This document shows positions 806 through 5,596 of a stretch of DNA of 5,979 nt, piece after piece. The stretch's first letter is position 1. The number at the start of each line of letters is the position of its first letter. This stretch comes from a virus (Duplodnaviria > Heunggongvirae > Uroviricota > Caudoviricetes): IMG/VR virus record IMGVR_UViG_2690316311_000021, one strand, 5' to 3'. A program made the translations under genes and the position numbers. The notes beneath the pieces were generated by a model, which was given only the letters and a program-made list of their open reading frames with translations, searched no databases and was not told the origin of the DNA.

Positions 806-1504
806 TTACCCGTTATCTCCTGTCGTTATTTTCTGTATGACATCACGATGCTTATTAATTTCCCGCAGCGCGGCGCATAAGCGCTCCCACTTCTGAACCT
901 GACCTTTTGCCCGGCGCAGCTCGCGGTTAGCCACATGCAGCGATGGTAAAATCAGACCATCCGGATGCTTTCTGATGAACGACGACTGTGACTGCACTGT
1001 GACCGCCACACTTTCAGTTTTAATTTCTTCCTGTGTTTCCGCTTCCCGGACTGGTAACGCAACACCTGCCGGCTGAGGAAAGGCTTTACCATCGGTTTCC
1101 GTTACCGATGCAGCTTTCGGCTCTGCCGGTAAATTATCGCCCGGTATGCAGTAACGATATTGACCGTCCTGATTTACGCGAATCAGACGACCTTTGCTGA
1201 CAGCCATCGCCAGTGATGAATTCGCCCGGCGGGAGGTAATCCCGAACATTAACGCCAGTTCGTCAGCCGACTGAGGACCATGCTGTTCAATCGCGTTAAT
1301 CAGCATCTCTGCAGTGGTTTTTGGGGCCGCTTCAGTTGCCTCACTCGTCAGCCACCACATCGACCCCTTGTTATCAGCTTCGCCACGACGCTTCAGCTTC
1401 CAGAGTTCGGTAACAGCATCGTCACGGCTGATTTCAAGACGGGCTGCAATCTCGTGCGACGAGGCTTTTTTCAGTGCTTTCAGTGCGTCAAAAACGGTTT
1501 CCAT
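806..1504 (-). CDS. Hypothetical protein with two predicted winged-helix-like segments and a C-terminal coiled coil (232 aa from ATG 1504; the ORF stays open to ATG 1570, 254 aa)
   Basis: Internal ATG at 1504 has a near-ideal RBS (GGGAGGAAAATTTA-ATG). ATG at 1570 has only AGGA at 2-nt spacing and would overlap the P-like gene by 32 bp. Two segments ([35 protein letters not shown] and [43 protein letters not shown]) look like wHTH recognition units. Confidence 0.65.
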
Positions 1505-1538
1505 TAAATTTTCCTCCCGGTAAAAATTACTTCTCAAC

Positions 1539-2201
1539 TCAGACAAAACCGGCCGCCTTCCGGCGCTCATATTCCTGTTTCAGCAATTCAATTGGCGTTG
1601 GCCCTGGCGGGCGTTTGGGTGCTGCCAGTTGTCGCCGGACTGGCGGAACACTGAGGCCATTACCAACATGCTTTGCCCATTTCGTCAGCTGCCTTTCCAC
1701 AAGCCGTTTTAACTCCCCTTCGGTCATCTGGCGCTCAATCCCCTTTGAACGCATCTCGAGGCAAATGTGGTACAGCACCGGCTGTGGCCACGGGTATTTA
1801 TCACTCCCGTCGTACCGCCAGGATTCATTCCTCCAGCGACGGTATTCCTCCATCACGGCATCCACCGTCAGGCCAAATGGATTTGCCCCGCTCTCCGAAA
1901 TCAACGCCACAAACTCAGCCAGATCCGGAGGCCACGTTTCACCCGCCCGGCAGCGGTCCATGCACCGACGGCAGATCTGCCGGATTTGCTGTTCAGTCAT
2001 CGCGCCAATCTGAGCAATCCAGAGTTTCGACGGCGCAGCCCCGTTCTTCTGAGTCCAGCGGTTCGAATACACCTCCCCCATAAGCTCCCACAGCTTCCAG
2101 GCCGTTTCCGTTGCTGATAAATCCGTTTTCACGTTCCCACTGTTCGCGTGCAGCCCGGATTTCCTGAACTGCCCGTGATGCGGTGCCACCTGGTGCTGCA
2201 T
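1539..2201 (-). CDS. Phage replication protein P-like (DnaB helicase loader); start uncertain (ATG 2201, 2081 or 2000)
   Basis: The C-terminal half resembles lambda P as recalled (ours ...[22 protein letters not shown]... / ...[23 protein letters not shown]; lambda P ...YPDAESYPWKSNAHYWLVTNLYQNMR... / EPVKQLPVMGGRPLNRAQAL). ATG 2201 has an AAGGGGG SD at 6-nt spacing but overlaps the O-like gene by 209 bp. ATG 2000 sits in a GATGACTGA coupling overlap with the O-like stop. Confidence 0.8.
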
Positions 2202-3030
2202 GGCTTACCCCCTTGCTGACTGGTTTTACCTGTGCCCTGACGTGCTGCACGTGGCGGGCAAATTTCTGCTCCCACTGAACCTGCGTGAAAACCTTCCCCT
2301 CCGCCATCCAGTAATCCCGGAATGCGGCAAGCTCAGCAGGTGTAAACTCAGGCTCAGGCAGAGCCATACCCCACACTGCTGCCCGCTGTCGAAAATCCGG
2401 CGACGGTTGCCAGACTCCAGTCATCGGAAATTTCCCGATCGGTTCGCTCAGGCCGTCCAGGTATTCAGGTTCGGCTGTCTGCAACGACGCGTCATTCAAC
2501 TCACCGGTCGTAGCACTCTCGCGCATGCGCGCGTTATGTGTGGGGTTTAATTCTTTATCTGTATCTGTATCTGTCGTGATTTGTCGTGACATATGCGTGA
2601 CGCGTCGTGACTCATCGTGACAATCAGTGTTCTGCTTCCGCAGTCTTTCCCGCTCCCGCTGCGCTCTCTTGCGCTCTGCCGGGGATTTTGCGGTTTGCGA
2701 AACATTACCGTTATCCTCCTTCATCACCTGGCGTTTTTCCCATCCGGAAATAAGATCACCATCCAGAACTCGCCCCTGCATTGCATGCAAAATTGAATCA
2801 ATCACGTCTTCCGTCACATCAAGCGCACTTGCTAAATCTTCCGTCGTGACATCAATGTGACCACGTAGTGACACGCCGTGACATGTCGTGACATTTCGTG
2901 ACGCACTCACCAGAAGGTGGATATACACCGCCATCACTGTTGCGATTGGCTGTCCTGAGACCCTGGCAATGGTTCGCCATTTGGGATCATTTGGCATGTC
3001 ATGCCACAATCTGAGCCAGGCATTAGCCAT
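1993..3030 (-). CDS. Phage replication initiation protein (O-like replisome organiser, possibly with a DnaT-like C-terminal region), 345 aa
   Basis: The long ORF occupies the position immediately upstream of the P-like gene. ATG at 3030 is preceded by GAGGTGAGT (SD); the ORF track starts at GTG 3036. The coding sequence contains two phased GTGAC repeat arrays (see repeat features), as in lambdoid phages where ori lies inside the initiator gene. The DnaT-like assignment is from memory and tentative. Confidence 0.8.
   Translation of the reverse strand: MANAWLRLWHDMPNDPKWRTIARVSGQPIATVMAVYIHLLVSASRNVTTCHGVSLRGHIDVTTEDLASALDVTEDVIDSILHAMQGRVLDGDLISGWEKRQVMKEDNGNVSQTAKSPAERKRAQRERERLRKQNTDCHDESRRVTHMSRQITTDTDTDKELNPTHNARMRESATTGELNDASLQTAEPEYLDGLSEPIGKFPMTGVWQPSPDFRQRAAVWGMALPEPEFTPAELAAFRDYWMAEGKVFTQVQWEQKFARHVQHVRAQVKPVSKGVSHAAPGGTASRAVQEIRAAREQWERENGFISNGNGLEAVGAYGGGVFEPLDSEERGCAVETLDCSDWRDD
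2556..2573. repeat. (TATCTG)x3 hexanucleotide tandem repeat in an AT-rich tract next to iteron array 1; encodes TDTDTD on the minus strand
   Basis: Direct reading: tatctgtatctgtatctg. The surrounding 2541-2573 is AT-rich relative to the rest of the gene. Confidence 0.9.
2574..2621. repeat. Iteron-like array 1: five direct (T)CGTGA(C) repeats at 10-11 bp spacing; candidate replication-origin iterons
   Basis: CGTGA(C/T) cores start at 2575, 2585, 2596, 2606 and 2616 (gtcgtgat / gtcgtgac / gcgtgac / tcgtgac / tcgtgac). The repeats fall in all three codon phases of the O-like gene, which argues for DNA-level selection rather than an amino-acid repeat. Confidence 0.55.
2845..2902. repeat. Iteron-like array 2: six direct GTGAC repeats at 10-11 bp spacing
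   Basis: GTGAC at 2846, 2857, 2868, 2878, 2888 and 2898 (spacings 11, 11, 10, 10, 10). Same core as array 1, about 225 bp away, also inside the O-like gene and not in codon phase. Confidence 0.55.
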
Positions 3031-3098
3031 ACTCACCTCATCTGATACCGAACTTTACCCTCGAACATCCGGAATAAATCCGGCATGAATATTGTTGG

Positions 3099-3524
3099 TC
3101 AATGCACGACAACAGCATTACCAGGCTGACCACCACTGTTAGTCAGGGTGCCCCAGGCGATCGCCGCTGCGACAAAATCATCCACATCTTTCACCAGCCG
3201 ATCCCTCCGTTCGACGATCTCACGGTAATATTCAGAGCTGTGACTGCGCATACGGGCCACCAGCAGAGGCGGCATTGCCTTTTCGATCGCCGGTAACAGA
3301 GCCTGAATTTTTTCAACAGCATCAGGGGTGTCTTTATCCAGCCAACGGAAAATTTTCTGGGTATTACGAGCCAGGGCTTCCGGATGGCTGTCGTCGTACA
3401 GTTCCGGGAACGTCATCCCCAGCTCGAAATAAGTCCGGGCTATTTCAGCTGCAGGAACTTTCTCACCGTCCGGATAGGCCCAGGCATTGATCGCCATGCG
3501 GATGTGCTCATGTTTGATTTTCAT
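3099..3524 (-). CDS. ydaT: YdaT-family protein (DUF1019; proposed CII-like regulator in cryptic prophages), 141 aa
   Basis: N-terminus MKIKHEHI... matches YdaT proteins of Rac/CP-933P-type prophages as recalled. It lies immediately downstream of the cro-like gene, its ATG (3524) overlaps that gene's stop (ATGA), and it is preceded by an AAGGGGG SD. Confidence 0.75.
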   Translation of the reverse strand: MKIKHEHIRMAINAWAYPDGEKVPAAEIARTYFELGMTFPELYDDSHPEALARNTQKIFRWLDKDTPDAVEKIQALLPAIEKAMPPLLVARMRSHSSEYYREIVERRDRLVKDVDDFVAAAIAWGTLTNSGGQPGNAVVVH

Positions 3525-3748
3525 GAATCCCCCTTTCCTTCGCCCTGAGTGGTATCCTTCTTTTTGTAAAGTTCTGGGTTCAAAGATAATTTCCCCTTGG
3601 AGTATGCAGCAGCTTCCGCAGCCCTCCCCTTCGGAACTATTTCACCAGGACGCTTACGCCACATGTAAATAGCTTCGCGGGTTATCCCATAAAAATCGGC
3701 AACCCTCTGAACAGAACCAAAAAACTGGACAAGTTCATCAACTCGCAT
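3521..3748 (-). CDS. dicC: Cro-like HTH regulator, DicC/YdaS family, 75 aa
   Basis: Strong RBS (AGGAGG-TAAA-ATG). It is divergent from the repressor gene. The sequence LVQFFGSVQRVADFYGITREAIYMWRK has the same pattern as DicC (as recalled) and lambda Cro ([26 protein letters not shown]). Confidence 0.85.
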   Translation of the reverse strand: MRVDELVQFFGSVQRVADFYGITREAIYMWRKRPGEIVPKGRAAEAAAYSKGKLSLNPELYKKKDTTQGEGKGDS

Positions 3749-3758
3749 TTTACCTCCT

Positions 3759-3826
3759 AAATCTAAGTATTTTTAGATTACAAGATAATTTTTTTTAGGT
3801 CAATGCAATCTAAAATAATTTATATT
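3759..3826. promoter_or_regulatory. Divergent operator/promoter region (OR-like): operator inverted repeats plus candidate PR (leftward) and PRM (rightward) elements
   Basis: Inverted repeat ATCTAA(3761-3766)-6 nt-TTAGAT(3773-3778); second imperfect repeat TTTAGGT(3794-3800)...ATCTAAA(3808-3814). Leftward candidate promoter on the minus strand: -35 TTGACC (complement of 3798-3803), 17-bp spacer, -10 TAATCT (complement of 3775-3780). Rightward candidate -10 TATATT at 3821-3826 just upstream of the repressor SD. Confidence 0.5.
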
Positions 3827-3842
3827 CAATTTGCAGGAGAAA

Positions 3843-4490
3843 ATGATGGAAAGCCTTGGCATCAGGCTTAAGAGACTTAGAAAAGATAAGGGGCTGACCC
3901 AAGTAGAACTGGGTAAGCTTTCAGGCGTGACTGGGGTTACTATAGGGTACTGGGAGAAAGATCTAAACGAACCAGGTAGCAAAGCTCTAAGTAAGTTAGC
4001 CCAGGCATTAGGAACTACTGAGTCCTATCTCCTATATGGAGTATCGTCTCCTGAATTATCTTTTGTACAAAGTACCTCAGGCACCAAGATCCCCTACCTT
4101 TCGTGGGGTGAGGCGATTTCTTTCCTAATCTTAAAAGGAGAGAAAACAATGGGAAATGTCGATAGGATCACCACATTCTTTGATGTCGAGGAAGGTGATT
4201 TTGCCGTTTCAATGCCTGATGACACAATGCATAACCCATCAGGATCACCGAGTATCCCAGTTGGTGCTACTGTGATCCTAAGGCCAGGAGAAAGTTATAA
4301 AAATGGCAGCATCGTCGCTGTAATAGTTCCGGATCCGCTTAAAAATGAACCATCTATGACTATAAAGAAATTAGTTATTGATGGGAAGCTTGTGTATTTA
4401 AGCCCTCTCAATCCACGCTATCAGTCATCCTTACTTACACCAGAGTGTAAAATTGTTGCCGTAGCAAAAGGTGTACAGTTCAACTTATAA
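3843..4490 (+). CDS. CI/C2-type prophage repressor: N-terminal HTH (XRE) plus C-terminal S24 LexA-like peptidase domain (215 aa from ATG 3843; alternative ATG 3846)
   Basis: SD AGGAG at 3835-3839. The N-terminus (LTQVELGKLSGVTGVTIGYWEKDLNEPGSKALSKLAQAL) is a classic HTH. The C-terminal region aligns with lambda CI and P22 C2 as recalled: a Ser in ...FAVSM... corresponds to the catalytic Ser of GNSM/GDSM, ...MTIKKLVID... to the catalytic Lys (FTFKKLIRD), and ...YLSPLNPRY... to LQPLNPQYP. Confidence 0.9.
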   Translation: MMESLGIRLKRLRKDKGLTQVELGKLSGVTGVTIGYWEKDLNEPGSKALSKLAQALGTTESYLLYGVSSPELSFVQSTSGTKIPYLSWGEAISFLILKGEKTMGNVDRITTFFDVEEGDFAVSMPDDTMHNPSGSPSIPVGATVILRPGESYKNGSIVAVIVPDPLKNEPSMTIKKLVIDGKLVYLSPLNPRYQSSLLTPECKIVAVAKGVQFNL

Positions 4491-5180: not shown

Positions 5181-5238
5181 TTTCTGGTGACGTTTGGCGG
5201 TATCAGTTTTACTCCGTGACTGCTCTGCCGCCCTTTTT
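5181..5238 (+). ncRNA. dicF: DicF small regulatory RNA (antisense inhibitor of ftsZ translation), 53 nt plus U-tail
   Basis: 5181-5233 (tttctggtgacgtttggcggtatcagttttactccgtgactgctctgccgccc) followed by TTTTT matches the E. coli DicF sequence as I recall it, and lies immediately upstream of dicB as in Qin. Confidence 0.8.
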
Positions 5239-5407: not shown

Positions 5408-5596
5408 ATGGAAACGTTATTACCAAACGTTAATACGTCTGAAGGTTGTTTTGAAATTGGTGTCACTATCAGTAACCCTGTATTTACTGAAGATGCCATT
5501 AACAAGAGAAAACACGAACGGGAGTTATTAAATAAAATATGCATTCTTTCAATGCTGGCCCGTTTACGTCCGATACAAAAAGGATGCTGGCAATGA
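5408..5596 (+). CDS. dicB: DicB cell-division inhibitor, 62 aa
   Basis: ATG 5408 with GAGGA SD at 7-nt spacing. The translation METLLPNVNTSEGCFEIGVTISNPVFTEDAINKRKHERELLNKICILSMLARLRPIQKGCWQ is nearly identical to recalled E. coli DicB (MKTLLPNVNTSEGCFEIGVTISNPVFTEDAINKRK...). The ORF-track entry 5303..5596 is an upstream extension in the same frame. Confidence 0.85.
   Translation: METLLPNVNTSEGCFEIGVTISNPVFTEDAINKRKHERELLNKICILSMLARLRPIQKGCWQ

Follow-up and report, generated by a model that had tools for sequence, protein, structure and literature searches.

The window considered here is a stretch of 5,979 nucleotides from the Caudoviricetes record IMGVR_UViG_2690316311_000021, and all coordinates given below are positions in this whole stretch. 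On its minus strand, it carries a gene encoding a putative replication initiator, in which two separate arrays of a short repeat are embedded. Array 1, which is downstream in the direction of the gene, is presumed to provide the core iterons of a replication origin. Array 2, the upstream one and the subject of this work, lies in the sequence encoding the presumed DNA-binding domain of the initiator. It is under selection at the DNA level, and its conservation and variation among homologs suggest that it could be the auxiliary arm of a two-part origin. The features on which this reading is built are the following:

1993..3030, minus strand: initiator gene, 345 residues (open reading frame 1993-3036, RefSeq start at 3030)
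2845..2902, minus strand: array 2, six head-to-tail GTCACG-type units on the gene strand
2866..2886, minus strand: 21-bp in-frame insertion within array 2, two units (10 + 11 bp), 7 codons, TCHGVSL
2813..2817, plus strand: single copy of the motif in the opposite orientation, reading GTGAC on the gene strand, in the codons D-V-T
2575..2621, minus strand: array 1, four GTCACG units and one degenerate ATCACG unit, in the initiator linker (residues about 137-152)
2545..2574, minus strand: A-rich (GATACA/GATAAA)n tract directly after array 1, gene-strand sequence ACAGATACAGATACAGATAAAGAATTAAA

The initiator comprises an N-terminal winged-helix domain (about residues 1-95), a basic linker that contains array 1 and a C-terminal DnaT-like domain (Pfam DnaT at residues 203-269, E = 1.4e-17; PHROG "replication initiation protein"). 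The N-terminal domain is weakly replisome-organizer-like or DnaD-like, without any significant match in Pfam, and no ATP-binding domain was detected in the protein.

Anatomy of the two arrays

On the plus strand, the GTGAC cores of array 2 are found at 2846, 2857, 2868, 2878, 2888 and 2898, with core-to-core spacings of 11, 11, 10, 10 and 10 bp. The array codes for residues A43-T63 of the initiator (peptide ASRNVTTCHGVSLRGHIDVTT) and is out of codon phase. These six cores, their coordinates and spacing, their phase and the encoded peptide are exactly those reported by the first-pass annotation of this DNA, a reading of the letters alone, which had also placed both arrays in the same gene, about 225 bp apart; the gap is 224 bp (2621 to 2846) and the distance from start to start 229 bp. 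The true repeat unit exceeds the 5-mer. Indeed, on the gene strand, it reads GTCACG with weak flanks (consensus aaT-GTCACG-(c/a)-n-a), and both this extended consensus and the 10-11 bp spacing are identical in array 1, whose plus-strand cores are GTGAC at 2586, 2597, 2607 and 2617 and the degenerate GTGAT at 2576. The repeats follow one another head to tail with a period of 10.2-10.4 bp, which points to a single monomer bound at each turn of the helix, always on the same face of the DNA.

Such an arrangement is not expected by chance. The window contains 26 GTGAC, versus 10.2 +/- 3.1 expected, a count that none of 200 shuffles reached. When the sequence was shuffled 2000 times with its dinucleotide content preserved, the longest series of one 5-mer repeated every 10-11 bp had two members in 1936 shuffles and three in 64, and a series of six never appeared.

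The inter-domain linker, between the winged-helix and DnaT-like domains, houses array 1, as a lambda-type origin requires, but array 2 does not occupy such a position and lies inside the N-terminal domain (residues 43-63). The A-rich tract that follows array 1 is presumed to be the DNA unwinding element and coincides with the regional minimum of GC content (0.375 at 2540-2579). Array 2 is devoid of any AT-rich neighbour. This asymmetry is general, as an A-rich tract follows the downstream array in nearly all homologs: among 40 of them, AT makes up 70% (A alone 57%) of the 30 nt that follow the downstream array, which usually consist of (GATAAA)n, and 46.5% of the 30 nt that follow the upstream one, versus a gene average of 44.7% (p = 5e-8 for the difference between the two arrays). 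In the window and in loci L140-L142, the tract is a GATACA/GATAAA hexamer microsatellite coding for TD/KD repeats. Its repeat number differs among close E. coli strains, WS4202 carrying one unit fewer; array 2 is unchanged among the E. coli variants compared. Protein alignment and DNA display indicate that the 21-bp insertion lifted array 2 from the usual four to six copies in the O157/E. albertii lineage.

Conservation and joint change of the arrays

The selection acting on array 2 as DNA is visible at synonymous sites. Among 22 non-redundant homologs with GTCAC-type arrays (less than 90% nucleotide identity to one another), the third-codon positions included in the cores of array 2 match the majority base with a frequency of 0.98, versus 0.56 at the other synonymous sites of the domain (Mann-Whitney p = 1e-4), and the G that completes GTCACG is conserved at 95-100%. 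The effect is repeated in homologs whose arrays carry a different motif, CGAACG (0.87 versus 0.61, p = 0.004). Homologs devoid of arrays have an ordinary ...S(E/A)ERG... connector, and the protein therefore does not need the repeat.

When the whole gene is used as a megablast query, other phages match only its C-terminal half (1993-2570), with 85-88% identity; these relatives include Actinobacillus phage vB_Apl-pPE4 and PPompW-type and Stx2a phages. Judging from these matches, the initiator gene is a mosaic with a junction at about 2570, just past the predicted origin. The relatives of the N-terminal half are others, namely Escherichia phages Evi and Tritos (83-84%), Aeromonas phage pAEv1818 (71%) and seven Pseudomonas phages (67%). 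All of them carry both arrays at the same gene positions, with copy numbers (array 1 + array 2) of 5+4 in Evi, 4+4 in the Pseudomonas phage phita81A and 3+4 in pAEv1818.

The distribution of the arrays extends far beyond these phages. A scan of one genome per GTDB species yielded 52 loci spanning Gamma- and Betaproteobacteria, at least 40 of which carry phased arrays at both gene positions, mostly around nt 116-180 and around nt 350-480 within the gene. They belong to Escherichia, Shigella, Aquitalea, Rahnella, Bordetella, Serratia, Pseudomonas, Gilvimarinus, Acidovorax, Chromobacterium, Castellaniella, Variovorax, Janthinobacterium and other genera. A scan of viral contigs for three phased GTCACG units found 120 loci, of which 87 encode this initiator N-terminal domain. 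Both arrays are present in 68 of the 70 distinct full-length loci with this domain, the upstream/downstream copy numbers being mostly 4/5, 6/5 or 6/4. In the remaining 33 loci, the phased iteron lies in the linker of other replisome-organizer-like genes or, in some cases, between genes, usually as one array or tandem arrays and then a purine-rich tract. Linker arrays in such other genes are found, for example, in L173, L181, L195, L161 and L233, and unrelated viral contigs carry 3 to 8 phased GTCACG copies in apparently non-coding DNA, often followed by AT-rich sequence (L162, L171, L177/L258, L216/L265, L228).

Globally, the iteron type is, from these scans, wider than this gene family. The general plan appears to be a linker array beside an A-rich tract, and the special feature of the family appears to be the extra array in the sequence encoding the N-terminal domain, for which L185 is a possible second case.

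The motif itself varies, and it varies in both arrays at once. GTCACG occupies both arrays in 27 loci, CGAACG(C) in 12 loci and in the Caudoviricetes genome MW202785, GTAACG in 5 loci, and GCAACG in Ralstonia phage Hennie, whose initiator shares 39% protein identity. No mismatched upstream/downstream pair was found; neither array is present in 9 loci and the downstream array alone in a single one (L121), L099 and L100 having been read separately. A rough neighbour-joining tree of the domain, from which the array-encoded connector had been removed, places GTAAC at no fewer than four positions (at least 4) and array loss at 3 or more, which suggests several independent switches of the motif. A recent joint switch is seen between sister loci, as L105 carries GTCAC in both arrays and L103 and L106 carry GTAAC in both. 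These three loci, from Pantoea, Erwinia and Enterobacter, also have denser copies of the motif, partly overlapping and partly inverted (e.g. GTCACGTCACGTCACGTGAC, GTAACGTTAC), and a further copy at the start of the putative recognition helix, which reads ERHV with GTCAC and ERNV with GTAAC.

The single inverted copy, 33 bp downstream of array 2 in the direction of the gene, is also constrained. For its Val codon, 19 of 19 non-redundant homologs use GTG, and the copy reads GTTAC, by a synonymous change, in L106, whose arrays read GTAAC. The copy is missing in L095-L097.

Possible roles of array 2

The reading favoured here, with a probability of roughly 0.55, is that array 2 serves as the auxiliary set of iterons in a two-part origin located in the initiator gene, a set which would bind the initiator and play a cooperative, bridging or wrapping role. 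That both arrays are made of initiator-binding iterons is, in itself, quite likely. We infer the binding, its stoichiometry, the bridging or looping and the positive effect on initiation from sequence comparisons. The first-pass annotation had considered a bipartite origin, looping between the arrays, or one array acting as origin and the other as a regulatory or incompatibility site. Its view of array 2 as an origin-related array of initiator sites is strengthened by the synonymous conservation, the matched motif classes and the co-inheritance with the N-terminal domain. The data also agree with its proposal that only one of the arrays acts as the origin itself, as the AT-rich tract occurs only after array 1 and L121 keeps array 1 alone, while no locus keeps array 2 alone.

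According to this model, expression driven from pR would come first, and initiator monomers would then line up head to tail on the GTCACG units of the two arrays, each occupying one turn of the helix. Melting would take place at array 1 and the A-rich (GATAAA/GATACA)n tract beside it. From its position about 229 bp upstream, array 2 would load extra initiator, bridge or wrap the inter-array DNA and stabilise the complex formed on array 1, and the variable C-terminal domain, DnaT-like here, would recruit the P-like loader together with the host DnaB. A cooperative, bridging or wrapping role is favoured because one array is hardly ever retained or recoded without the other. Furthermore, since the sites are included in the coding sequence of the DNA-binding domain, specificity and sites would be inseparable by recombination and would be inherited or changed as a unit, which fits the mosaic junction just beyond the origin.

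Several observations weigh against this reading. Array 2 is dispensable in some cases, as L121 has the downstream array only and several related genes a linker array only, and some homologs and cyanophage relatives have no array at all. The distance between the arrays varies (219, 227, 229, 238, 247, 258 or 340 bp), and no fixed helical phasing between them was seen. No residue outside the array-encoded segments clearly tracks the motif class in the alignment columns. Finally, positive and negative roles of array 2 fit the data almost equally.

Indeed, array 2 could be bound by the initiator and exert a negative or regulatory effect, through titration, handcuffing/incompatibility or a roadblock to pR transcription leading to autoregulation, a role that we regard as possible though rather unlikely. 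All the comparative evidence for initiator binding holds for this reading too, which gains further support from the lack of an AT-rich tract beside array 2 and from its dispensability in L121 and in the related families with a linker array only. Its location 5' of the origin on the pR transcript would suit such a role, up to three copies of the module in many O157 genomes make cross-talk plausible, and the plasmids RK2, P1 and F, which use an auxiliary iteron cluster for negative or regulatory control, provide a precedent. However, limiting the copy number would bring little gain in a lytic burst, and the joint gain, loss and recoding of the arrays, both of them being present in 68 of 70 loci, do not make array 2 look like an optional add-on. 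Moreover, a scan restricted to consensus sequences found no promoter-like site close to array 2 that could be repressed and no sigma-70-like site in 2400-3900.

Alternatively, the repeats could be sites for another factor, either a host protein or a phage protein such as the YdaT/CII-like, Cro or P-like one. This is very unlikely, although the lack of any specificity-determining residue in the N-terminal domain outside the array-encoded segments would be in line with it. Pseudomonas prophages include GTCAC and GAACG classes and Enterobacterales GTCAC and GTAAC classes; this diversity within a single host group speaks against a host protein reading the motif. Neighbour genes and the C-terminal half of the initiator vary where the arrays are kept (the gene that follows is P-like in the window, LygF in Evi, helicase-type in pAEv1818 and dnaB in Hennie), and the sole constant partner of the arrays is the N-terminal domain of the initiator.

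If the N-terminal domain is the reader, the motif-encoded peptides, i.e. the 43-63 connector or hairpin and the D-V-T turn preceding the putative recognition helix, could themselves help to read the motif, although this is rather improbable. The alignment columns scoring best for the tracking of motif class are those of the D-V-T turn that precedes helix 74-88, a turn which the inverted copy encodes in the GTCAC class, and L116 (GTAAC) differs from L097/L098 (GTCAC) essentially only in array-encoded residues. The connector has an invariant Arg-Gly followed by His, Asn or Arg. In an AlphaFold2 model of residues 1-135 (alignment of 50 sequences, mean predicted local distance difference test (pLDDT) score of 75.9), helices span 4-11, 17-25, 29-45, 63-70 and 74-88, before a short wing; a low-confidence hairpin (48-55, pLDDT 58-68) lies within the connector encoded by array 2, residues 95-116 are disordered and 117-134 form a basic helix. 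If the idea were true, mutating one base of a repeat would modify both the site and the protein segment that reads it, and this would explain how arrays and protein passed jointly from one to another of four specificity classes while the scaffold hardly changed.

It is extremely improbable that array 2 lacks a DNA function of its own and arose secondarily, from a peptide repeat, from slippage during replication or through gene conversion with array 1 as the donor. The 21-bp duplication of this lineage shows that slippage-type events happen, and both arrays encode similar short peptides (NVT, SR, CH). Nevertheless, units of 10-11 bp lie out of codon phase, the synonymous positions of the motif are nearly invariant across homologs of less than 90% nucleotide identity, which largely refutes this explanation, and the array is maintained across several orders of Proteobacteria. 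The ordinary ...ERG... connector of array-less homologs likewise leads to the rejection of a repeat selected at the protein level.

Lastly, an element acting in the messenger RNA (mRNA), as a structure or a translational signal, is hardly credible, and an RNA structure was rejected: a stem could form between the single inverted copy and one of the GUCAC of array 2, but direct repeats cannot pair among themselves, the fold of 2795-2915 is no stabler than that of shuffled sequences (z = +0.55, 139 of 200 shuffles folding at least as well), and neither the 10-11 nt spacing nor the match with array 1 can be explained at the RNA level.

Prophage context and known replication systems

The window has a 100% identical match in E. 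coli O157:H7 chromosomes, among them that of EDL933, where it corresponds to the immunity/replication region of a lambdoid prophage located beside tRNA-Ser/mtfA. The other features of this region are:

1539..2000, minus strand: lambda-P-like helicase loader gene, immediately following that of the initiator (PF06992, E = 4e-16; PHROG 109; RefSeq)
806-1570, minus strand: gene of a DUF1627 protein (Pfam)
3099-3524, minus strand: gene of a YdaT/CII-like protein (Pfam, PHROG)
3521-3748, minus strand: Cro gene (Pfam P22_Cro)
3831-4490, divergent: gene of a LexA-family CI-like repressor
2520..2531, no strand assigned: 12-bp perfect palindrome CGCGCATGCGCG, beyond the A-rich tract

The minus-strand genes from Cro to DUF1627 are located downstream of pR. 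On the repressor side of the immunity region lies a Qin-like dicF-dicB cell-division-inhibition cassette, with the antisense small RNA DicF (5182-5233, plus strand; Rfam RF00039, 76.7 bits) upstream of dicB (5409-5596, plus strand). The integrase of the prophage is annotated as frameshifted (L004 12061-12521; EDL933 1951120-1952167), and excision of the prophage may be impossible, in spite of an apparently intact replication module. The palindrome was considered as a counterpart of the one said to flank ori lambda; this candidate is weakly supported, is not conserved in the E. coli variant L142 and was not relied on. Two more GTGAC, 11 bp apart and in the orientation of the arrays (CTGTGACTGCACTGTGACC, 988-1003, plus strand), lie in the DUF1627 gene, about 1.6 kb downstream; this pair, below the requirement of at least three copies used in the cluster scan, is possibly due to chance. 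No third phased cluster, comparable to oriR of phage SPP1, was found in Evi, in pAEv1818 or in the 50 kb around the EDL933 prophage, which have the two arrays only.

The module is found in 644 of 5426 complete E. coli genomes, among which those of O157:H7. Many O157:H7 genomes have up to three matches to 2540-3060 of the window, the maximum for any genome being four. The origin of a common prophage replicon, shared by prophages of E. coli and of other Gamma- and Betaproteobacteria, is mapped by prediction, in homologs whose annotation is inconsistent: their genes are labelled "Primosomal protein I", "DNA replication protein O", "DnaT-like ssDNA-binding domain-containing protein", "phage replisome organizer", "pyocin large subunit" or "hypothetical". 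It provides a clear case of double coding, in which an array of DNA sites is kept inside the coding sequence of the very domain presumed to bind it. The four motif classes borne by a nearly constant scaffold also constitute a natural experiment on origin specificity, an old question raised by comparisons of lambda, phi80, 21 and P22. Furthermore, co-resident prophages of the same iteron class could activate or titrate each other, and such cross-talk would be relevant when defective and Stx-carrying prophages are induced in enterohaemorrhagic E. coli. No description of a two-part origin of this type was found in the literature, including PMC8044961, although the coverage of subscription journals was partial and a prior description is possible.

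In lambda, the origin is part of the initiator gene: its iterons adjoin an AT-rich tract, in the stretch coding for the linker that joins the N- and C-terminal domains, and in Stx phages extra iterons add residues to the initiator protein (PMC7466680). The locus described here resembles ori lambda by the location of array 1 in the linker of the initiator gene, by the adjacent AT-rich tract and by the P-like loader gene downstream, the latter being present here but not constant in homologs; as in Stx phages, two extra units add residues, 7 in this case. The lambda iterons are about 19 bp long, display an internal dyad symmetry and bind O dimers. By contrast, the units found here are 10-11 bp long, with an asymmetric GTCACG core and a single orientation, and the initiator has no match to Phage_rep_O (PF04492), even at E <= 10 for its N-terminal domain. 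Unlike lambda, which has one array, the present gene carries a second one 229 bp upstream, in the coding sequence of the DNA-binding domain and without an AT-rich tract.

Gene 38 of Bacillus phage SPP1 also holds its own binding repeats (oriL) and an AT-rich element, and gp38 binds two separate repeat regions (PMC6316719). The present origin is likewise predicted to be included in the initiator gene, here with a weakly replisome-organizer-like N-terminal domain, and two repeat regions are predicted to be bound. In SPP1, however, oriL and oriR are about 13 kb apart and each has an AT-rich element, whereas here both arrays lie in one gene, 229 bp apart, with one AT-rich neighbour.

Two clusters of one iteron, the essential one being beside the unwinding element, are known from RK2 oriV (5+3), P1 (incC/incA) and F (incB/incC). 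Here too, two clusters of the same iteron are present and only one adjoins the predicted unwinding element. The plasmid systems differ by iterons of 17-22 bp, by a WH1-WH2 Rep and by clusters located outside or flanking rep, whereas the present units are 10-11 bp long, both clusters lie in coding sequence and the initiator is of another family, which has no Pfam or NCBIfam match to a plasmid RepA/TrfA/Rep_3-type initiator.

In E. coli oriC, the low-affinity DnaA boxes have the same orientation and are about one helical turn apart, an arrangement suited to a head-to-tail filament of the initiator ending at the unwinding element. The arrays described here share same-orientation sites about one turn apart; the initiator is neither DnaA nor an AAA+ protein, and the resemblance concerns a possible way of working rather than membership. 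An origin inside an initiator gene is of a known kind. What is new, as far as the literature covered shows, is a second iteron array, very probably bound by the initiator, within the coding sequence of its DNA-binding domain.

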